Origin: Hyphomicrobiaceae bacterium
GTDB taxonomy: Bacteria > Pseudomonadota > Alphaproteobacteria > Rhizobiales > Hyphomicrobiaceae
Length of the DNA: 64,000 nucleotides
NCBI GenBank assembly: GCA_036280295.1
Contig: DASURA010000369.1
Coordinates: 1,341 to 65,340 of the forward strand
Direction: 5' to 3'
Of the stretch, positions 53,738 through 64,000 are shown one piece after another (positions within the stretch are counted from its first letter, which is position 1; each line of letters opens with the position of its first letter). Below the pieces are notes generated by a model that saw nothing but the letters and a program-made list of their open reading frames with translations, was not told where the DNA came from and did not search any database. The translations under genes were made by a program, and so were the position numbers.

Positions 53738-55285
53738 TCATTCCCACTCGATCGTTCCCGGCGGCTTGGATGTCACGTCGTATACGACCCGGTTGATGCC
53801 GTTCACCTCGTTGATGATCCGGGTCGCGGCCCGGCCCAGTACGTCGTGGGGGAACTCGAAGTAATCCGCGGTCATGCCGTCGGTCGAGGTGACGGCGCGC
53901 AGGGCGCAGACCTTGTCGTAGGTCCTCGCGTCTCCCATGACCCCGACCGTGCGCACCGGCAGCAGCACTGCGAACGCCTGCCAGATCCTGTCGTACAGAC
54001 CGGCCTTGCGGATCTCGTCCAGGAAGATGGCGTCGGCTTGGCGCAAAACCTCCAGGTCGCCGCGGCCCACCTCCCCCAGCACACGGATCGCCAGGCCCGG
54101 CCCCGGGAAGGGATGGCGGCCGATGAAGGTCTCCGGCAACCCCAGCTCGCGGCCGAGCGCGCGCACCTCGTCCTTGAACAGCTCGCGCAGCGGCTCGACC
54201 AGCTTGAGGTTCATGCGCTCGGGCAGGCCGCCGACGTTGTGGTGCGACTTGATGGTGACGGACGGGCCGCCGGTGAAGGAAACGCTCTCGATCACGTCGG
54301 GATAGAGCGTGCCCTGGGCCAGGAACTCGGCGCCGCCGAGCCTGGCCGCCTCCTCCTCGAACACCTCGACAAACAAGGCGCCGATGGTCTTGCGCTTTTC
54401 CTCCGGATCCGCCTTGCCCTCCAGCGCCGTCAGGAACCGTGCACTCGCGTCCACATGCACCAGCGGGATGTTGTAATGGCCGCGGAACAGCGACACCACC
54501 TCCTGAGCCTCGTTCTGCCTGAGTAAGCCGTGGTCGACGAAAATGCAGGTGAGCTGGTCGCCGATCGCCTCGTGGATCAGCACCGCGGCGACGGCGCTGT
54601 CGACGCCGCCTGAGAGGCCGCAGATCACACGCCCCTTGCCCACTTGGCCGCGGATCCGGGCGATCTCGCTCGACTTGAAGTGCGCCATGCTCCAGTCGCC
54701 CGGCAGCCCGGCAATCTTGCGTACGAAGTTGCCGAGCAGCGCCGCGCCGCGTGGCGTGTGCGCGACCTCCGGGTGGAACTGCACGGCGTACAGGCGGCGC
54801 TGCTCATCGGCAATGGCGGCGAACGGCGCGCCCTTGGAGATCGCCACCACCTTGAAGCCGGGCGGCAGGGCGGTGACGCGGTCGCCGTGGCTCATCCAGA
54901 CCGTGTCCGTCTCGCCTTCCCGCCACACGCCCTCGAACAGCGCCGACTCGGCCGTCACCTCCAGCTCGGCACGGCCGAACTCGCGGTGGTGCCCGCCCTC
55001 GACGCCGCCGCCGAGCTGCGCCACCATCGTCTGCTCGCCGTAGCAGATGCCGAGAACAGGAAGTCCGGACTGGAATACCCAGTCGGGCGCTCGGGGGGTG
55101 CCGAACTCGGTCACGCTGGCCGGACCGCCGGAGAGGATCACCGCCTTCGGCTTCAGCCGGTCGAGGGCATCCTGGGCGCGGTTGAAGGGCACGATCTCGG
55201 AATAGACCCCTTGCTCGCGCACCCGGCGTGCGATGAGCTGGGTGACCTGGCTGCCGAAGTCGATGATGAGGACGGTATCGGTCAT
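53738..55285 (-). CDS. guaA: GMP synthase (glutamine-hydrolysing)
   Basis: 515 aa from [13 protein letters not shown]. GATase Cys motif GICYG, PP-loop GLSGGVDS, C-terminal ...[14 protein letters not shown]. Confidence 0.98.
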
Positions 55286-55543
55286 GGGGGCTCCAGGGGG
55301 GGTTCCAGGTGGCGAGGCGGTAGCCAGGATGTTGCCGGGCTTTGAGAATCGTCCCGCGTGATGCCGCGATACAGCACCCGCGCCGCAGGGGGTCAAGCGG
55401 AGGCTCCGCCCGCGGTATCCTGGCCGGTTTCCGGGCCGATCCCCTGGCCGACGGCCCGTCTCCTGCTGCGCCGTGTTTGCAATCGGCCGCGCATCTTCTA
55501 CACGGTTTATCTCGCAGCCGCAGCAACAGCGATGGAGGTTCCT

Positions 55544-56476
55544 ATGGCCCACTCCGCATCCGAGCCCGCGCGGAGCGCCGTCGCGGTTGTCGGCCTCGGC
55601 AGCATCGGCGGCGTGGCGGCGGGATGCCTGGCCGACGCGGGGCACCATGGCGTCATTGCCTGCGTGCGCCGGCCGCTGGAGCGGCTCACCGTGGAGCGCC
55701 CGGAGGGCGCGGCGGAGGTGGCCATCCGGGCCCTCACCGATCCGGATATGGCAACGCCGGTCGACTGGGTGCTGCTGGCCACCAAGGTGCCGGATACGGC
55801 TGCCGCCGGGGCGTGGCTGCGCCGGCTGTGCCGGCCCTCGACCAGGGTTGCGGTGCTGCAGAACGGCATCGATCACGTGGCGCGGGTGGCTCCCTTCGCC
55901 AACGGCGCCACCGTTATTCCGATCATGGTCTACTTCAACGGCGAGCGCCTGGCGCCGGACCGCGTGCGCATTCGCCACGTCCACGATACCCCCGATATGG
56001 AGGCCCCGGACGATGACGGCGGGCGGGCATTCGCGCAGCTGTTCGAGGGCAGCTCGCTCAGCGTGCGGCTGCTCGCCGATTTCAAGACCCAGGCCTGGCG
56101 CAAGCTGCTCGTCAACGCCGTGGCCAATCCGATGACCTGCCTGACCCTGCGCCGCCAGGAGGTGCTGCGCCACCCGGATGTCCACGCGCTCAGCTTGGCC
56201 GTGCTGCAGGAGGCCGCCGCGGTGGCGCGTGCCGACGGCGCCAGGATCGCCGACGACGAGCCGGAGCGCACCATGGCCAAGCTCATGACGTTCAGCCCCG
56301 AGCTCGGCACCTCCATGTACTTCGACCGCGTCGCCGGCCGCCCGCTGGAGGCCGACGCCCTCACCGGCGCCATCGTCGCTGCCGGCGCGCGGCTGGGCGT
56401 GCCGACGCCTCTCAACACGGCGCTGCTGGCACTCCTCAGGGCCGTGAGCGAGGCCGCGCAAGGCCCGGCGGGTTAG
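55544..56476 (+). CDS. Ketopantoate reductase (PanE/ApbA) family oxidoreductase
   Basis: 310 aa from ATG 55544 (GGAGG at a 5-nt spacing). Rossmann motif VVGLGSIGG, ...[14 protein letters not shown]..., C-terminal ...[10 protein letters not shown]. Confidence 0.8.
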
Positions 56477-56894
56477 CGAGGCGTCCGAGGTCTAGAACGT
56501 GTACTCAATTACATGGAGCGATGCTGGCTCACGTCTGCGTTTGTTGAGGGTTTCGGATGCCGGCCCGCCGCAACGGTCGGGGCTGGCACGGGGGCCGGCG
56601 TCCGAAAGCCTCCAGGGAAGGAACCCGCGAGTCGTGGGGCACGCCGGTGCCGCGAGCGCTATGGGGATTTCGCCGTAGTGTGCCGATTGGCAGACGAAGG
56701 CGGGCGGCGATGAGGAGAGCAGGCCGGGCTGATGGGGCGCGGCCGTCGCGTCGGGCTGCATTCGGCTCTGCGATTCAGCGGTGACCGAGGCTCTATCGAT
56801 CGCGAAGCGCATCGTTCCCGACAAGCACCAACACGGCCGGCCCGTGGCCAGCGGCAGTGGCGCTCGGCTTTGCGGCGGTTGCAGGCTGGGAGCG

Positions 56895-57940
56895 TCATGA
56901 TGTGTCGATCCTGGTGGTCGGGGCATGGCGTGGCCGGCAGCCTGCCTCGAAGGTCTCGATGACGATCATGCGCCCGCCGCAGCAGGGACACGGGGTGGCG
57001 AGCACCGATTGAGGTCCGTCATCGGTGGGCGCCTCGTCCTCGGGATCGGTGGCGGCGACCTCAGAAGCTCACGCGCCTGGGCGAGGTTCTCCTCGCGGGT
57101 GCCGCCGGCGAGGAGGCCGTAGTGGCGGATGCGGTGGAAGCCCTTGGGCAGGACGTGGATGATGAAGCGGCGGATGAACTCGTCGACCGCGACGGTCATG
57201 GTGGTGTAGCGGCTTGGCCCCTCGACCCGGTAGTCCTTGACCTTGAAGGTGACGCTCTCCGCATCGGCGGCGATCAGGCGACTGTTGGAGATGGCGACGC
57301 GGTGGGTGTAGCGCGCCAGGTAGGCGAGCACGGCCTTGGGACCGGCGAACGGGCGCTTGGAGTAGACGAACCAGCGCGTTCTCTTGAGCGGCGCCAGGAA
57401 GGCGGCGAAGGCCTTGGTGTCGGCGAGGTGGGCATGCGCGCCAAAGAAGGCGAGCTTGCCGGCCTGGTGGGCGGCGGCGAGCTTCTCCAGCATCAGGCGC
57501 CGGAACAGCCTGGAGAGCACCAGCACGGGCAGGAAGAAGTTGGGCTTGGCAGCGATCCGGCGTTTGCCGTCGGGCGAGACGCCGCCGCCCGGCACGATCA
57601 TGTGCACGTGCGGGTGATGCGTCATGGCCGACCCCCAGGTGTGCAGCACCGCCGTGATGGCGATGCGGGCGCCGAGGTGCTTGGGATCGGAGGCAATGGT
57701 CAGCATGGTCTCGGCCGCGGCCTTGAACAGCAGGTCGTAGATCGCCTTCTTGTTCTGGTAGGCGATATCACCAATCGCCGCCGGCAGCGTGAAGACGATG
57801 TGGAAGTAGGGCACGGGCAAGAGCTCGGCCTGCCGCTCCTCCATCCACTCTCTCGCCGCGGCGCCCTGGCACTTGGGGCAGTGCCGATTGCGGCAGCTGT
57901 TGTAGGCGATGGTGGTATGGGCGCAGTCCTCGCAGCGCTT
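56895..57940 (-). mobile_element. IS91-family transposase remnant (5'-truncated, one frameshift)
   Basis: YNSCRNRHCPKCQ zinc-finger motif, HUH region HTWGSAMTHHPHVHMIVPGGG, catalytic-Tyr region YLARYTHRVAISN. The first 50 or so codons are missing: homology starts at RCEDCAHTT near 57937. A frameshift near 57065 is needed to reach the conserved C-terminus CPCCGGRMIVIETFEAG...IDTS, with stop at 56895. The element end may extend to about 56490. Confidence 0.85.
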
Positions 57941-58890
57941 CCGAAGACTGGGCCGATCGAGGTCTGGATGAGCGCTCCATCCCTTCGCTGCAAGAACAAC
58001 GCGTCGAGACCCTCTCTTTGTGCAAGCACCTTGCCTTCCACGGGACCGAGTACCATGAGCGCTGTGGCCCAAGCATCTGCATCCATGCAGCTAGCGGCAA
58101 CGACTGAAACTGACGCGATTCCGTTGTCGACTGGACCGCCGCGCGACCGGTCCATTGTGTGGGCCAGGCGCTTTCCTCCGAGATCGACCCAGTGCCGATA
58201 GTCGCCCGAGGTCGCAACCGCGGCGTCCCGCAACTCAATCACGCCGAGCGGACTCCGCAGCTCGTAGTCGGGCCTTTCCACCGCCACGAGCCACGGTGTT
58301 CCGTCTGCCTTGGCGCCTCGCGCTTTAAGCTCTCCATCGAGACTGACCAGCGCACTGGAGATGCCGAAGGTCTCAACCGCACGCATCATCTCGTCCACGG
58401 CGAAGCCTTTGGCGATGCCCGAAAGGTCGAGCGCGAAATGGGCATGCTTGCGCGCACGCCTTCCGGGTACATCCAGTTCAAGAACAGTATGGGTTGGTAG
58501 CAGCCGCTCGCGAAGGGCAGCCAGAATCGCTTCCTTGTCGGGCGCGGAACGAGCGGCTCCGAAGCCCCAAGCATTGACCAGGCCTCCCAGGCCGATGTCA
58601 AAGGCTCCGCCCGAGGCGTGCCCGAACTGCAACCCCCGCTGGAGAACCTGCATGAGCTCGGCAGGCAAGGATACCCAGGCGCCCGGCGACGCCGCATTGA
58701 AGCGCATCAGATCGCTGTCGGACTTCCATGTGGACATCTGGCGGTCCACGCGGTCGACGGCGCGAGCTAATGCGGCTTCCAGCGCGGCGATATCGATCGC
58801 TGGCGACGCATAGAGCAGCGCCGACCACCGCGTTCCCATGGTGGCCCCGCTCATTGCATGACGAAGGAGGTCAGTAGACATCTTCGGCAT
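57700..58890 (-). CDS. apbE: FAD:protein FMN transferase ApbE, native 3' end replaced by IS91-derived sequence
   Basis: ApbE-like from MSGATMGTRW... through ...ADAWATALMVLGPVEG...LFLQRRDGALIQTSIGPVF (about 310 aa, to about 57960). The ORF then runs a further 85 or so codons out of frame through the transposase remnant. Start is 58890 or 58881. No obvious signal peptide. Confidence 0.8.
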   Translation of the reverse strand: MPKMSTDLLRHAMSGATMGTRWSALLYASPAIDIAALEAALARAVDRVDRQMSTWKSDSDLMRFNAASPGAWVSLPAELMQVLQRGLQFGHASGGAFDIGLGGLVNAWGFGAARSAPDKEAILAALRERLLPTHTVLELDVPGRRARKHAHFALDLSGIAKGFAVDEMMRAVETFGISSALVSLDGELKARGAKADGTPWLVAVERPDYELRSPLGVIELRDAAVATSGDYRHWVDLGGKRLAHTMDRSRGGPVDNGIASVSVVAASCMDADAWATALMVLGPVEGKVLAQREGLDALFLQRRDGALIQTSIGPVFGSAARTAPIPPSPTTAAAIGTAPSARAPRRESGWRSGRPSSCPCPTSTSSSRCRRRLVISPTRTRRRSTTCCSRPRPRPC

Positions 58891-61090
58891 ACCTTCCTTG
58901 GGCTTTGAGCGCGAAGGGCGTCAGGCCGATCGGCGCCAACACATCGACCATCGCCTGCATGACGCCCGCCGCCATGTCGCGCCCGCCGCAAACCATAACC
59001 TGTGCCCCGTTGGCTATGAGAGCGCGTAGGCGATCAGCATCCCTACGCAGACAATCCTGCACATAGCCGCCGCCTTTCACGCGCGAGAAGACGGTAGCGA
59101 GGCTCGTCAGCCGCCTGTCATCCAGCCAGCCGGCAATCTCGCGCCCATAGAGAAAATCCGAGTCTGGATCGCGCCCGCCGAAATAGAGATGCATGGGCCT
59201 GCGCGCGACGTTGGCGCGAATGAATCCCGCCAGCGGGCCAACGCCAGTGCCAGCGCCGATCAGGATCACCGGTTTTGATGCACGTGCCGGACGAAAAACC
59301 GGGTTCACCTTCACGAAGGCCTCGGCGCTGTCGCCCGGCCGAAGACCGTGAAGCATGCCGGAGCAAAGCCCGCCCGGATGCTTGCGCACGCATATCTCGA
59401 CGAAGCCGTCACGAGTCGAACTGGCCAACGAGTAGTAGCGAGGCAAGCTGCAGTCCGGCGGCACAACTGCAATCAGGTCGCCTGCGGCGAAGCGCGGCCA
59501 GCCGTGCCCTGCGAGGCGCGCGAAGACGCCGCTCCTGGGCAGCGCGAAGCGCAGGACGCAGGTCGGCGCCTGGACCTCCGCACCGTAATCAATGCGCTCG
59601 ATAAGCGTTAGTGTGTGAGTACGCGGCCGCTCCGACACATGGGTCAGGACCAGCTTTTCACCCATGACATCCGACACGGTCTCACCCCATCGCGCGAACT
59701 CCTGCCCAGACTGGCGGTCGATGGTCTCCAGCGGCATCAGCGACGCCCAGCCTTTCCGCACCAGAGCCGATTCGACATCACGGGCGAATTGGCAGAATTG
59801 CGGAAATTGACGATCGCCGAAGCCGAGGACCGCGACCGGGAAAGGCGGTGGATCGCTGATCCCGTCGAGGCGTTTGAGGAATGCGCTGGCTGTTGCTGGA
59901 GCCGCGCCGTCACCATAGGTCGCGGTCAGCACGAACATGCGCCGCGCCGACGGATAGGATCGCAACAAGCTGTCCATCGGGGCGGCGTGAACTCTGTGGC
60001 CGTTGGACGTCAGGGCTGCGTGCAACGTGCGGGCAAAGCCCCATGTGCTGCCGCCTTCGCTCCCGACCAGGATCACGGTGTCGGCGCTCTTGGCGGGAAC
60101 GTTGTCGGCGATTGGAGCGCGAGTACGTCGCCCGCTCCACCACATCGCAGCGCCGCTCAAGCCGAGCACTGGAACGCTGAGGGCGCTGACGCCGAGCAGC
60201 AGGCCGAGCCACCAGAGCCCTTGGCCGGTGTGCAGCATGTAGATGAATTCATAGATCTGCTGGGCCGCCGAATGCGCCTGCCAAGCCAACATCTCTCCGC
60301 TCGCTGGGTCGACATAGCCCTCGCCGGCAGCGCTGGTCACGTGGAAGAGGTCATTCGGATTCGCCGGGTTGGGAAAAGTCAGCTCGCGCAGCTGCGAAAG
60401 ATCGATGCCGCGCAAAGCCTCGATTTGCTCGACCGGAAGAGCCTCGCCGCGGGTCGTCACCGTCGGGAGAGCGGGCCCCTGCGACGTGCCGTCCGGAATT
60501 AGTCCGAACGTCGTGAGCGACAGGTAGAGCGCCGTCACCGTCGACAGGAGCAGTCCGAAAACTGCTAACCGGCCCACTTCGGCATGCAGCCGCTGCATGC
60601 CATCGCCCCGCGCGCGACCGAGAATGTGCCGCCATCCTCCCATGCGCCGGGCGGTCATTTGCAGTCCGGACAGCGTCAGGACAAGCATTGCAAGCGCGCC
60701 AACGGCAGCGGCCATCCGTCCGCTATCGCCCAGAAAGAACGAACGATGCAGGTTGGTCATCCAGCGTTCGAACGCCGAGCGCACGTAGTCCGAAACCGGT
60801 CTGCCGCCGGAAGGATCCACCACGCTCGCCGCCGGGCCGTCATTCCCGGAGTAGAAGGCAATGACCTTGCCGGAGGGCAGCCGCTTGAGCTCCTCTACTC
60901 CGGGATAGGTATTGACGACTCGGCCAGCCAAGTCGGCGACGCTAACGCCCTCTGCGGGAAGCGAAACCGCTCCGGCTCTCTCCCAGGCCGGCATCACCGA
61001 CAGCACCGATCCGCTGATGACGAGCGCCATCAGCGGAAGGAGGACGGAAAGGGCCAGGACCTTATGAATCCAGCGCATCATGACATCCAT
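58871..61090 (-). CDS. PepSY-associated TM protein fused to flavodoxin-like and FAD/NAD(P)H (FNR-like) reductase domains
   Basis: 739 aa. N-terminal PepSY_TM-type helices (WIHKVLALSVLLPLMALVISG, MAAAVGALAMLVLTLSGL, LAVFGLLLSTVTALYL, WWLGLLLGVSALSVPVLGL). Flavodoxin-like VILVGSEGGSTWGFA. FNR-like RYYSLASS, GGLCSG, ILIGAGTGVGPLAGF, C-terminal YAEDVY. Confidence 0.88.
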   Translation of the reverse strand: MDVMMRWIHKVLALSVLLPLMALVISGSVLSVMPAWERAGAVSLPAEGVSVADLAGRVVNTYPGVEELKRLPSGKVIAFYSGNDGPAASVVDPSGGRPVSDYVRSAFERWMTNLHRSFFLGDSGRMAAAVGALAMLVLTLSGLQMTARRMGGWRHILGRARGDGMQRLHAEVGRLAVFGLLLSTVTALYLSLTTFGLIPDGTSQGPALPTVTTRGEALPVEQIEALRGIDLSQLRELTFPNPANPNDLFHVTSAAGEGYVDPASGEMLAWQAHSAAQQIYEFIYMLHTGQGLWWLGLLLGVSALSVPVLGLSGAAMWWSGRRTRAPIADNVPAKSADTVILVGSEGGSTWGFARTLHAALTSNGHRVHAAPMDSLLRSYPSARRMFVLTATYGDGAAPATASAFLKRLDGISDPPPFPVAVLGFGDRQFPQFCQFARDVESALVRKGWASLMPLETIDRQSGQEFARWGETVSDVMGEKLVLTHVSERPRTHTLTLIERIDYGAEVQAPTCVLRFALPRSGVFARLAGHGWPRFAAGDLIAVVPPDCSLPRYYSLASSTRDGFVEICVRKHPGGLCSGMLHGLRPGDSAEAFVKVNPVFRPARASKPVILIGAGTGVGPLAGFIRANVARRPMHLYFGGRDPDSDFLYGREIAGWLDDRRLTSLATVFSRVKGGGYVQDCLRRDADRLRALIANGAQVMVCGGRDMAAGVMQAMVDVLAPIGLTPFALKAQGRYAEDVY

Positions 61091-61104
61091 CCCTGCACGT
61101 AGGC

Positions 61105-61575
61105 CTACATGTCGTAGGTGAAGGAGCTGATGTAGCTGCGCCCCGCCACGGGCCGGCCTGCCCCTGCGGACGACAACGGAACGACCACTTCGGACGGGCT
61201 GTCCCGCATGTCCTCTACGGCGGCGTCGATGTGGAGCTTGTAGCCTGCATCGAAGAGCGCGTCCGCGAGGTCGAGCGTGACTGTCAGTGTGCGGCCGGCT
61301 CCGACGCTGGCGCCTGTGATGCCGTTGATGTCGGAGAGGGTTCCACGAGATCCGCGGTTCCAGCCGCTGAGGTGGCTATAATATTTGGACTTGGAGCCCG
61401 CCATCCACAGCGTGCCTTTGTAGGCGCCAGTCGCGTCGGTCACGTAAAGGGCCAGATACGCGCCGTTCCCGCCATAGTTCTTGAGCGTTGTGGTCAGCGT
61501 GACAGGACGCGCCATGGCGGGTCCGGGAGCGGCCAGCGCGGTCGTTACAGCAAGGGCGGCAAGCAGTGATTTCAT
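61105..61575 (-). CDS. Secreted DUF2271-family protein with an ApbE-type flavinylation motif
   Basis: 156 aa. Signal peptide MKSLLAALAVTTALAAPGPAMA. Motif DINGITGAS (nt 61306-61317 encode TGAS). GGAGA RBS. Confidence 0.85.
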   Translation of the reverse strand: MKSLLAALAVTTALAAPGPAMARPVTLTTTLKNYGGNGAYLALYVTDATGAYKGTLWMAGSKSKYYSHLSGWNRGSRGTLSDINGITGASVGAGRTLTVTLDLADALFDAGYKLHIDAAVEDMRDSPSEVVVPLSSAGAGRPVAGRSYISSFTYDM

Positions 61576-61626
61576 TTTTTGTCTCCAGCGGTGGCGTATC
61601 GATCGCGCCGAAACTGAAGACCGCGG

Positions 61627-61675
61627 CTGACGTATTCCTGAAGGCTGACAGGATTCTGCTTCAGGTCACTGTCAG
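61627..61675. promoter_or_regulatory. 49-bp composite operator (site 1) upstream of the DUF2271 operon
   Basis: CTGACgtattCCTGAAG-N15-CTTCAGGtcactGTCAG. The centre lies 76 nt upstream of ATG 61575. An extra CTGAAG half-site is at 61614-61619. Confidence 0.65.
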
Positions 61676-61837
61676 CTTGGCGCTATTTGAAAACGAAAAC
61701 GCCCGCACGAGGCGGGGCGCGCATGAAGGCGATGTGCTGTTCGTTCAGCTCAGGTAGCGTATGTCAGTCGCACCGATGCCGACGCCTTGTGTCCTCTGAT
61801 GATGGCCTCCGATGAAACGCATTCCACACCAAGGACC

Positions 61838-62260
61838 TCACTTGACTTCGACTCTAGGGGCCGCACCGCCCTGAAAAAGCCCGTTGGGAGGCGGCGCTAC
61901 TGTTGGCGCTGGCGCTGCCCCCTGTCCCGACCGTTCGCCTGCCCGGCTTCTGTCTTCCTCATCGTCATGGTCCCTGCCGTGCTCTCCCTGCTTGTACTTC
62001 ACGCGAATCACAGCGAGGGACGCAGGATCCACCTTTACCTTGATGGCACGGCCGTTCTCGTCTTGCCCTCTAATCTCGTAGCATCCGTCGTCGATCTTGA
62101 TTCTGTGCACGGTCCAGCCACGCGCCTTTGCCATTTGTTCGACTGCTTCGCGCGGCTGCCACTGGGCCATGGGAACCTTGCAGTCGTCATCGTCGGCCAC
62201 CGCCATGCCGGGCGCTAGCGCGCCCAGCAGAATGGCAGCAATCAATACCGCCCTTTTCAC
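61838..62260 (-). CDS. Periplasmic PepSY-domain protein
   Basis: 140 aa, GTG start with AGGAG RBS. Signal peptide MKRAVLIAAILLGALAPGMAVA. PepSY-like core (AVEQMAKARGWTVHRIKIDDGCYEIRGQDENGRAIKVKVDPASL). Acidic/His-rich tail. Confidence 0.8.
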   Translation of the reverse strand: MKRAVLIAAILLGALAPGMAVADDDDCKVPMAQWQPREAVEQMAKARGWTVHRIKIDDGCYEIRGQDENGRAIKVKVDPASLAVIRVKYKQGEHGRDHDDEEDRSRAGERSGQGAAPAPTVAPPPNGLFQGGAAPRVEVK

Positions 62261-62311
62261 GTTCTCCTGCTCCCGTTCGAAGCTAACCTATCTTCCTTTT
62301 GAGCCAATTTC

Positions 62312-62360
62312 CTGACGGCGACCTGAAGACGCTGCGGCTTTTGCTTCAGGTCAACGTCAG
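62312..62360. promoter_or_regulatory. 49-bp composite operator (site 2) between the PepSY gene and the response-regulator gene
   Basis: CTGACggcgaCCTGAAG-N15-CTTCAGGtcaacGTCAG. The centre is 76 nt upstream of the PepSY GTG at 62260 and 85 nt upstream of the RR ATG at 62421. Confidence 0.65.
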
Positions 62361-62420
62361 GTTCTCCTCTATGATTACCTATGAGCGGGACAGGCAATTG
62401 GGGGCGGGCGGAATGAGACG

Positions 62421-63083
62421 ATGCGGATATTGCTGATTGAAGACGACACCATTCTGGGCGCGGCCGTGCGCGACCAGATCGTGTCCGACGGACACTCCGT
62501 CGACTGGGTTACCCGGCTTGATGCCGCGTGGGACCATCTTAGCAGCACCGCCTACGACCTGCTTCTCCTGGATCTGATGCTGCCGGACGGTCGCGGTATC
62601 GGACTCCTACGCGCCCTACGCGCCAAGGGTGACGTCACCCCGGTCATCATTCTAACGGCGCTCGATCAACTATCCGATCGCATCGAGGGGCTCAACGCCG
62701 GTGCAGACGATTACATGATTAAACCCTTCGATCTTTCGGAACTTTCATCGCGGCTGAATGCCGTCGCGCGCCGCTATTCCGGTAATCCGAATCCCCTTGT
62801 CCGGGTCGGTGCTCTGCAGATCGATCTGGCCGCTCGCTCGATCACCCGTGCAGGAAAGAACATTCCTCTGACGGCACGGGAATGGGTGCTGCTCGAAATT
62901 TTCGTGCAGCGCCCGCGTCAGGTCATGTCAAGGGCGATTCTTGAGGAACGACTCTACTCATTTGGCGAGGAGGTCGAGAGCAACACCATCGAGGTGCACA
63001 TCAGTCGGCTTCGCAAGAAGCTTGGACATGCCATCATTGAGACCGTGCGTGGCCTCGGTTACCGGCTGGGAAGCGCCTCATGA
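62421..63083 (+). CDS. OmpR/PhoB-family response regulator
   Basis: 220 aa. Receiver domain (MRILLIEDD, LLLLDLMLPDG, ADDYMIKPF) and winged-helix output (LTAREWVLLEIF..., IETVRGLGYRL). Confidence 0.95.
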   Translation: MRILLIEDDTILGAAVRDQIVSDGHSVDWVTRLDAAWDHLSSTAYDLLLLDLMLPDGRGIGLLRALRAKGDVTPVIILTALDQLSDRIEGLNAGADDYMIKPFDLSELSSRLNAVARRYSGNPNPLVRVGALQIDLAARSITRAGKNIPLTAREWVLLEIFVQRPRQVMSRAILEERLYSFGEEVESNTIEVHISRLRKKLGHAIIETVRGLGYRLGSAS

Positions 63084-64000
63084 AAAGGCCGCGTAGCCTG
63101 CAGTGGCGGATCGCACTGTGGCTCGGGCTCGGCGTCGCGCTCCTCTGGATCATCGCAGCCGTCGTGACAGCTCAAAGGCTGCGTCACGAGATGGACGAGG
63201 TGTTCGATAGCGCGCTTGAGGAAACTGCCCAGCGGATTCTTCCGCTTGCGGTGCTCGATATCCTCGGCCGTGAGGCAGGCGACACGTCTCAACGTATCGC
63301 GACGCTGAGGCAGCACGACGAGTACTTTACTTATGTGGTGCGGGACGAGCGCGGGTCCGTACTGGTGCGCTCGCACAGCGCCAACGACGCCATCTTCCCT
63401 CCCTTCTCCAGAATGGGTTTTACCGACACGCCAACCCACAGGATCTACTTTGACGCTGCGCTGCAAGGCACGGTGACGATCGCAGTGGCGGAGCCGCTCG
63501 CGCACCGCCGCGAGGTCGCGAACGAGGCACTCCTCGGGCTTGCCTGGCCGCTGGGATTGCTTATTCCCCTCAGCCTTCTTGCCGTCTGGGGCGTCGTGCG
63601 CGTCTCGATGACGCCGGTCAGGAGCCTGCGGAGAGGTATTGAAGCACGCGGCACTGGCGATCTGTCGCCGGTTCCGGCCGCAGGCCTGCCCTCCGAGATC
63701 AGGCCGCTTGCTGACGCCGTGAACAACCTGTTGGAGAGCCTTCGGCGCGCCCTGGAAGCTGAGCGGAGCTTCGCCGCCAATTCCGCGCATGAGCTACGTA
63801 CACCGATCGCCGCCGCGCTGGCGCAGACACAACGGCTCATCGACGAGACCAAAGACACCGCGGCGCGAACGCGGGCACAGCAGATCGAGACGGCGCTGCG
63901 GCGGCTTTCGCGGCTGTCTGAAAAGTTGATGCAACTCGCAAAGGCAGAGGGCGGACGCCTTCAGGACAGGGAGACGACCGACATCGCATCTGTCCTGAAA
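63080..64000 (+). CDS. Sensor histidine kinase (partial, runs off the window end)
   Basis: My own translation from ATG 63080 (ATGA overlap with the RR stop): MKRPRSLQWRIALWLGLGVALLWIIAAVV..., a second TM (LAWPLGLLIPLSLLAVWGVV), a HAMP-like region, and H-box FAANSAHELRTPIA. Open to position 64000. Confidence 0.88.
   Translation, partial: MKRPRSLQWRIALWLGLGVALLWIIAAVVTAQRLRHEMDEVFDSALEETAQRILPLAVLDILGREAGDTSQRIATLRQHDEYFTYVVRDERGSVLVRSHSANDAIFPPFSRMGFTDTPTHRIYFDAALQGTVTIAVAEPLAHRREVANEALLGLAWPLGLLIPLSLLAVWGVVRVSMTPVRSLRRGIEARGTGDLSPVPAAGLPSEIRPLADAVNNLLESLRRALEAERSFAANSAHELRTPIAAALAQTQRLIDETKDTAARTRAQQIETALRRLSRLSEKLMQLAKAEGGRLQDRETTDIASVLK

Follow-up and report, generated by a model that had tools for sequence, protein, structure and literature searches.

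A 64-kb stretch of DNA from a Hyphomicrobiaceae bacterium (contig DASURA010000369.1; this whole stretch is called the window, and its coordinates are used throughout) carries on its minus strand three adjacent open reading frames (ORFs), encoding a small secreted DUF2271 protein (61105-61575, 156 residues), a fusion of PepSY_TM, flavodoxin-like and FNR-like modules (58871-61090, 739 residues) and an ApbE flavin transferase (57700-58890, 396 residues). We give a probability of roughly 0.6 to the following reading, taken as a whole: the locus is a typical representative of the PepSY-like flavinylation systems already published, more precisely of those that bring their own cytoplasmic reductase, and it conducts electrons out to periplasmic Fe(III) under the control of the sensor genes next to it. 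This class of system is already described, and it is annotated in close relatives; for the window itself the result is a routine annotation. What retains interest is a conserved ApbE devoid of a signal peptide, an operator common to the reductase operon and a PepSY_2/two-component partner, and the FNR-fused subclass as such, which is biochemically unstudied.

A predicted conduit from cytoplasmic NAD(P)H to the periplasm

The initial annotation of this DNA had described three co-oriented, tightly spaced genes. The ORFs are indeed so arranged: 14 nucleotides separate the DUF2271 stop codon from the ATG of the fusion, while the fusion stop codon and the ATG of ApbE overlap by 20 nucleotides. The range it gave for the locus (58871-61575) covers, however, only two of the three genes, as ApbE lies mostly outside it. 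When 80 related genomic loci from Alpha-, Beta- and Gammaproteobacteria were compared for synteny, motif and signal peptides, DUF2271 was found directly upstream of the fusion in 79 and ApbE directly downstream of it in 68, a gene order far above chance expectation. For the fused architecture itself we found 3740 homologues, the nearest in Bradyrhizobium (81-84% identity). The cluster type is widespread, with thousands of homologues and with a DUF2271 homologue on 99 plasmids of PLSDB, and it has been catalogued.

The catalogue is that of Meheust et al. 2021 (eLife, PMC8238504), who listed 3220 PepSY-like flavinylation clusters, in 2833 of which DUF2271 occurs and in 1077 of which the PepSY-like gene has an NAD-binding domain, and who proposed a cytosolic NAD(P)H donor and a role in iron reduction. 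The initial annotation was right to name DUF2271 as an ApbE-associated domain. Their definition calls for PF03929 or PF16357 within five genes of ApbE, FMN_bind, DUF2271 or DUF3570; here the fusion is flanked by both DUF2271 and ApbE. The likeness to their systems includes the PepSY_TM domain, a DUF2271 with an [S/T]GA[S/T] motif, the ApbE, the C-terminal NAD-binding fusion, the electron path and the occasional VIT1 or MsrQ-like neighbor. There are also differences: the cognate ApbE tested in that work has a signal peptide, and an ApbE of this subclass lacking one goes unmentioned, as do the conserved PepSY_2 and two-component partner; moreover, three transmembrane (TM) helices are described there versus four here.

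The fusion ORF exists as annotated, but its homologues begin with MLRW, and the start is probably M4 or M5, for a product of 735-736 residues. Among the Pfam profiles suggested earlier as a check on the locus, DUF2271, PepSY_TM, Flavodoxin_1, NAD_binding_1 and ApbE were all matched, whereas neither FAD_binding_1 nor a connecting domain was found in the fusion. The PepSY_TM domain takes up residues 6-318 (60137-61075, minus strand; PF03929, E=1e-30) and covers profile positions 1-293 of 295. An AlphaFold2 (AF2) model (pLDDT 81) and hydropathy place four TM helices at about residues 11-29, 126-144, 175-193 and 297-315, with two periplasmic PepSY-like alpha/beta inserts between helices. The TM2-TM3 loop and the stretch after TM4 are rich in Lys and Arg, a positive-inside pattern that puts the flavodoxin/FNR module on the cytoplasmic side. 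This predicted topology agrees with the proposed conduit, a point on which the initial annotation could have failed.

In an alignment of 21 diverse fusion sequences, four histidines were invariant (H9, H115, H169 and H287). They lie at helix ends, one pair per membrane face, as would be expected of the ligands of two b-haems. FoxB has two haem sites with two conserved His each, and PepSY-like proteins are related to FoxB (PMC11334425). FoxB of P. aeruginosa (7ABW) was the top PDB match to the membrane part in a profile search (E=2e-4), and in that alignment H9 and H287 both fall on histidines of FoxB; a single-sequence PDB search with the same part gave no FoxB match, meaning that a profile was needed. 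The fusion shares with FoxB and VciB, which are ferric or ferri-siderophore reductases, the Pfam family (here with the whole PF03929 domain), the four helices and the His at helix ends; it also shows the cytoplasmic termini and the two His pairs, predicted to bind haem, of a FoxB-type di-haem reductase. Yet the similarity to FoxB is weak, and FoxB lacks both a fused reductase and partners of the DUF2271 or ApbE type; the donor to FoxB is unknown, whereas here a donor module is built in. NOX, FRE and MsrQ-type enzymes, too, join an NAD(P)H dehydrogenase on the cytoplasmic side to a membrane domain with two haems that sends electrons outward, but their membrane fold is PF01794 instead of PF03929, so they are analogues and not homologues.

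The soluble part comprises a flavodoxin-like domain for flavin mononucleotide (FMN), predicted to be cytoplasmic (residues 340-461; 59708-60073, minus strand; Flavodoxin_1, E=6e-13), and an FNR-like domain for flavin adenine dinucleotide (FAD) and NAD(P)H that extends from about residue 546 to the C-terminal EDVY at residue 739 (58871-59455, minus strand; NAD_binding_1 at residues 610-710, E=9e-10). FAD_binding_6 gave a weak match, below the curated cutoff. The flavodoxin loops VGSEGGSTW, TATYGDG and LGFGDRQF are conserved in the 21 sequences, which also show no variation in the C-terminal Tyr or in the FNR motifs R551-x-Y-S, GAGTGxGP and FSR. A Foldseek search with the whole fusion returned only diflavin reductases (top matches CPR, SiR flavoprotein and NOS reductase), the soluble module being dominant. 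CPR, CysJ and NOS have the same domain order, with the flavodoxin-like FMN domain first and the FNR-like FAD/NADPH domain second, and share the FSR and C-terminal aromatic motifs. Membership in that family (Flavodoxin, FAD_binding_1 and NAD_binding_1 together) does not apply, however, given the missing FAD_binding_1/connecting domain, and the NCBIfam CysJ model matches the C-terminal part at 135 bits against an equivalog cutoff of 668. Furthermore, the reductase module is tethered to a membrane domain predicted to bind haem instead of serving a soluble partner. It appears, then, to work like a diflavin reductase without being one by family. The FSR motif aligns with the Ser-Arg pair by which CPR binds the 2'-phosphate, suggesting NADPH as the donor.

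The presumed acceptor, DUF2271 (PF10029, E=1e-33), has a Sec-type signal peptide (maximum 12-mer hydropathy 2.25) likely to be cleaved after AMA at residue 22. Such a signal peptide occurs in 80/80 orthologues and a twin-arginine motif in 0/80; a signal peptide or lipidation site is what Meheust et al. looked for in a target gene, and hydropathy, the AMA site and conservation all indicate one here. The initial annotation had pointed to DINGITGAS as an ApbE substrate motif. It spans residues 82-90, its T87-G-A-S90 core lies within the domain and conforms to [S/T]GA[S/T], and the codons for N84-G-I-T-G-A-S90 are at 61306-61326 (minus strand), S90 being the predicted site of the FMN phosphoester. 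Loss of this motif among orthologues had been named as a possible refutation, but the T/S, G and S positions are kept in 80/80 sequences and the A in 79/80. In A. ursilacus, experiments showed that the cognate ApbE flavinylates DUF2271 at [S/T]GA[S/T], in the paper that also defined this motif (PMC8238504); further rules for the motif are given in PMC12052999. An AF2 model of the window protein is a beta-sandwich of low confidence (pLDDT 61); compared with the PDB it gave no significant match, only generic Ig-like folds at E>0.02.

Taken together, these features fit a path in which NADPH would reduce the FAD of the C-terminal FNR-like domain and FAD would pass electrons to the FMN of the flavodoxin-like domain. 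From there they would cross the membrane via two b-haems held by the four invariant histidines of PepSY_TM, to arrive at an FMN that ApbE would have attached to Ser90 of the Sec-exported DUF2271. The step beyond DUF2271 is the least secure; the terminal acceptor would most likely be periplasmic Fe(III), free or chelated. Up to DUF2271 this is the route proposed in the initial annotation, from NAD(P)H through the PepSY membrane part to a flavinylated periplasmic protein; it coincides with the published model, and the sequence-level tests agree with it.

Sensor genes, a shared operator and the likely acceptor

The analysis added to the initial annotation the prior description of the system, a disrupted ApbE tail (see below) and a PepSY_2 protein with a two-component system as parts of the module. 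A small secreted PepSY_2 protein, similar to DbfQ and BqsP, is encoded upstream of DUF2271 (61838-62260, minus strand; PF13670, E=5e-28) and has a hydrophobic N-terminus (12-mer hydropathy 2.93). Divergent from it are an OmpR-family, PmrA/QseB-like response regulator (62421-63083, plus strand; Response_reg and Trans_reg_C) and the 5' part of a QseC/PmrB-like sensor histidine kinase with a 2CSK_N-type periplasmic domain (63080-64000, plus strand), which runs off the window. The best NCBIfam matches were PmrA and QseB for the regulator (below cutoff) and QseC for the kinase (below the equivalog cutoff); a full-length kinase orthologue, in locus L082, reads 2CSK_N-HAMP-HisKA-HATPase_c. Homologues of PepSY_2, regulator and kinase are found upstream in 71, 67 (62-89% identity) and 64 of the 80 loci, respectively.

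With PepSY_2 adjacent to the two-component genes, within four genes, the arrangement is DbfQRS-like. DbfQRS of V. cholerae and BqsPQRS of P. aeruginosa likewise have a small secreted PepSY-type protein beside an OmpR-type regulator and a kinase, and the opposite-strand layout is as reported for Burkholderia pseudomallei (PMC12714742). The PepSY-type proteins of those systems belong to PF03413, in contrast to PF13670 here, and the same paper mentions no DUF2271/reductase/ApbE operon. The window PepSY_2 has the sequence DDDDC just after its signal peptide and an acidic, His-rich C-terminal tail, HGRDHDDEEDR; the DDDDC and the His/Asp/Glu-rich tail look like a metal-binding region.

A 49-bp palindrome, CTGAC-N6-CTGAAG-N15-CTTCAG-N6-GTCAG, occurs at two places as a putative operator. 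One copy (62312-62360) is in the divergent intergenic region between regulator and PepSY_2, 51 nucleotides upstream of PepSY_2; the other (61627-61675) ends 51 nucleotides upstream of the DUF2271 start codon. Exact matches numbered two in the window versus none in 20 shuffles. About 40 related loci have the element in equivalent places, with a shorter-spaced version in Pseudomonas (L046, L054), and the half-sites CTGAAG (about -88) and CTTCAG (about -67) keep their positions in the alphaproteobacterial loci. A pentamer-N6-pentamer box is the usual layout for OmpR/PhoB-type regulators, and each arm of the palindrome fits it. Since the same palindrome stands at both promoters, the reductase operon and the sensor genes look like one regulon. 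The operon is probably controlled by the adjacent PepSY_2/kinase/regulator set, whose regulator would bind the 49-bp element; in any case, an operator common to both offers a clean regulatory handle for testing. A scan for sigma-70 consensus promoters found none, and no Rfam family, FMN riboswitch included, was present in 56000-64000.

As for the acceptor, iron is what related loci point to. A Caulobacter PepSY/DUF2271 locus is regulated by Fur and needed for fitness in EDTA (PMC12004947), and VciB and FoxB act on iron as well. In 13/80 loci there is a VIT1/CCC1 gene within 6 kb; in six Pseudomonas loci and in the closest relative (L001) it comes directly after ApbE, on the same strand. Another 8/80 count is that of loci with an MsrQ-like ferric reductase gene beside the module. 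The recurrent VIT1 partners support an iron-related role, without differentiating between uptake and the handling of excess.

The same conduit might instead serve an envelope or metal-stress response under the PepSY_2/kinase/regulator sensor, rather than iron assimilation. Its possible roles would include reducing Cu(II), chromate, uranyl, quinones or oxidized proteins, or dealing with iron excess together with a VIT1-type exporter. In favor of this, what is conserved as regulator is a dedicated two-component system with a common operator instead of an iron-starvation box. In addition, V. cholerae DbfQRS responds to changes in membrane integrity (PMC12714742), and in Bordetella a copper-dependent oxidase is reported to be supported in its function by CrpH, a PepSY_TM protein (PMC13038864). 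We found nothing specific to the module in the CrpH paper or in the SsoR paper. The iron evidence from Caulobacter, VciB and FoxB, and the VIT1 and MsrQ-like genes recurring beside the module, argue the other way, and we regard a stress role as somewhat unlikely compared with Fe(III) reduction.

An ApbE without an export signal

The conserved core of ApbE (residues 1-317; 57940-58890, minus strand) matches PF02424 at E=8e-80 over profile positions 1-266 of 266, and ApbEs in the PDB match the window protein at E=5e-57. In an alignment with the V. cholerae enzyme, whose catalytic triad is Ser241-His257-Asp285 (PMC12052999), the corresponding residues are S228, H244 and D272.

The initial annotation had found it odd that this ApbE shows no recognizable signal peptide or lipobox despite an exported substrate. 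The oddity is real. We detected neither feature in the window protein, whose maximum 12-mer hydropathy is 1.38 (to be compared with the values given above for DUF2271 and PepSY_2), and the alignment to the E. coli ApbE model, entered at its position 35, leaves no more than 10 residues ahead of it; the N-terminal lipoprotein or Sec signal typical of the ApbE family is thus missing. An upstream start was considered and rejected, the ORF being already maximal. Of the 68 loci with an adjacent ApbE, 67 had a readable N-terminus, and a signal-like stretch was absent in 67/67. In these 67 loci the ApbE start overlaps the reductase stop codon by 11-20 nucleotides, and 14-24 residues precede the MGT motif. 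The longer "starts" seen in some loci proved to come from reading the reductase gene in another frame and contain no hydrophobic segment. For the Rhizobium leguminosarum copy, RefSeq annotates an ApbE of 306 residues, beginning MTRYAMNGPTMGT. The DUF2271 homologue search returned close orthologues only, among the matches listed, and the sole contrast for the ApbE N-terminus is the signal-peptide-bearing A. ursilacus enzyme (PMC8238504). In two papers on flavinylation, PMC8238504 included, we found no discussion of the signal-peptide-less ApbE of the FNR-fused subclass.

A periplasmic location is essential for Salmonella ApbE, which did not complement when expressed in the cytosol, and the known cytoplasmic ApbE serves a cytoplasmic substrate (PMC12052999). 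The latter, from Klebsiella pneumoniae, resembles the window ApbE in having no signal peptide and flavinylates a soluble fumarate reductase; its substrate is cytoplasmic, whereas the only canonical substrate nearby in the window is Sec-exported. ApbE is also known to modify a 7-residue tag in an unstructured context (PMC12052999). In the most interesting reading, which is less likely than not, the ApbE found in this subclass genuinely stays in the cytoplasm. It would attach FMN to DUF2271 while the precursor is still unfolded and awaits Sec export, or would do so while docked on the cytoplasmic reductase domain, the two being made by coupled synthesis. Tat export of a DUF2271 flavinylated in the cytoplasm is ruled out by the absence of a twin-arginine motif from all 80 orthologues. 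If true, pre-export flavinylation would bypass the unsolved supply of periplasmic FAD and would represent a new route to an extracytosolic covalent flavoprotein; it would also imply that a polypeptide with an FMN phosphoester on it is able to go through SecYEG. Settling the role of this ApbE would clarify where and how extracytosolic flavoproteins mature. The common operator, the recurrent VIT1 partners and the ApbE itself, standing beside an exported substrate, are conserved details that should ease tests of the cluster type.

Alternatively, the signal-peptide-less ApbE may not act on DUF2271 at all. It could have a cytoplasmic target, such as S348/T349 in the phosphate loop of the flavodoxin domain, or a non-transferase role (FAD hydrolysis, flavin delivery), DUF2271 being served by an exported ApbE encoded elsewhere. 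The uniform lack of a signal peptide is consistent with this, and so is the overlap with the reductase stop codon, which suggests coupled synthesis of the two proteins. Klebsiella provides an example of an ApbE that stays in the cytoplasm and has its target there, and flavodoxin-type domains can be ApbE substrates (PMC11334425). Furthermore, no ApbE was found within 6 kb in 12/80 loci (L033, L039, L044, L047, L049, L051, L057, L061, L062, L068, L078, L079), all gammaproteobacterial (Halomonas, Neptunomonas, Marinicella, Denitrificimonas and others), which nevertheless have DUF2271 and the fusion; evidently the module can be served in trans, and flavinylation at these loci would need an ApbE encoded elsewhere. 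A flavinylation site in the flavodoxin loop was nonetheless rejected: the fusion has no conserved motif resembling D-x-x-[S/T]-G-A-[S/T], its loop reading GSEG[GN]ST, and this loop does not differ between loci that have an adjacent ApbE and those that do not. The only canonical motif of the module sits in DUF2271, and the cognate pair of ApbE and DUF2271 worked for A. ursilacus (PMC8238504). We consider a separate function for this ApbE unlikely, and DUF2271 remains its presumed substrate.

At its 3' end, the ApbE gene has been altered. The conserved sequence ends around residue 317 (...SIGPVFG, about 57941), where the window sequence diverges from homologues, whose tails are variable and 5-40 residues long. 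Abutting the core is a 5'-truncated transposase gene of the IS91 family of insertion sequences (56966-57941, minus strand; Y2_Tnp and Zn_Tnp_IS91), in which Zn_Tnp_IS91 is matched at profile positions 38-90 only, its own 5' end having been lost. DNA similarity to plasmid copies of IS91 stops at 57941. The last 79 codons of the ApbE ORF (57700-57939, minus strand) run out of frame through this IS91-derived DNA. The junction is spanned by contigs from three independent soil-metagenome runs and is thus not an assembly artefact; in those contigs the insertion-sequence region is fragmented and of high depth, consistent with a repeat. The 396-residue ORF thus reads as a chimera, in which the variable 3' tail was replaced by IS91 sequence and the catalytic core, by sequence, is intact. 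Decay of the module in the source genome, with the rearrangement having removed the ApbE tail and downstream genes and left the locus non-functional or only partly functional, would agree with the read-through into the transposase, the recurrence of the junction in several independent assemblies and the absence from the window of the VIT1 gene that follows ApbE in L001, but it is improbable given the intact ApbE core and catalytic triad, the variability of the lost tail in length and sequence among homologues, the integrity of DUF2271, the fusion, PepSY_2, the response regulator and both operators, and the similar lack of a downstream VIT1 in B. oligotrophicum.

Several points weigh against the assignment as an Fe(III)-reducing conduit fed by its own ApbE. 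There is no known route by which this ApbE, having no export signal, could flavinylate an exported DUF2271, and the foreign tail of 79 residues might impair the enzyme. No iron transporter, TonB receptor or DUF4198 gene is present in the window (nor are a second ApbE or an MsrQ-like gene), and the IS91 junction means that whatever once lay downstream of ApbE is gone from it. Control by a PmrA/QseB-like two-component system fits a response to stress or metal excess as well as it fits iron acquisition, and bacterial VIT1/CCC1 proteins are often iron exporters. Finally, we found no biochemical characterization of any member of the FNR-fused subclass in the literature; the initial annotation was correct to call the physiological substrate of this fused architecture undefined.

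Plasmid copies and other features of the window

Among the 99 PLSDB plasmids that carry a DUF2271 homologue, 72 are conjugative, including plasmids of Klebsiella and Citrobacter. We opened four of the records, one of which was unannotated. Two of them, from Klebsiella and Rhizobium, have the kinase and regulator, PepSY, DUF2271 and fusion genes, while the Bacteroidota plasmid has just DUF2271 and the fusion. The conjugative plasmid of Klebsiella michiganensis (CP124767.1, locus L086) encodes, in this order, the kinase and regulator, a ferric-reductase-like membrane protein, PepSY, DUF2271, the fusion and VIT1, without ApbE; it is an IncHI1B/IncP plasmid from a human rectal swab. The Rhizobium plasmid has a VIT gene near the module. 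On the Chondrinema litorale plasmid (Bacteroidota, L085), a distant DUF2271 (31% identity) adjoins a 736-residue PepSY fusion, with a TonB-dependent receptor and an ankyrin-repeat protein upstream and with no ApbE, PepSY_2 or two-component system; this pair indicates that the core of DUF2271 and fusion extends beyond Proteobacteria.

The G+C content is 61-64% over the module and its regulators (58001-64000) versus 66-69% over most of the window; it is also lower, about 63%, at 48-54 kb. The lower G+C of the module, together with the IS91 remnant, hints at horizontal acquisition.

Between PepSY_2 and DUF2271, 3' of the former, a consensus scan predicted a GC-rich, terminator-like hairpin followed by a T-run (61700-61716, minus strand); the prediction is weak, with 6 such sites found in the region versus 3.6 expected. 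The hairpin suggests separate transcripts for PepSY_2 and the reductase operon in the source organism. In many gamma- and betaproteobacterial loci, PepSY_2 abuts DUF2271 without a gap of this kind.

A long ORF (53738-56461, minus strand) reads over its C-terminal two-thirds like the GMP synthase GuaA, as recognized from the sequence only; its N-terminal extension is probably spurious.

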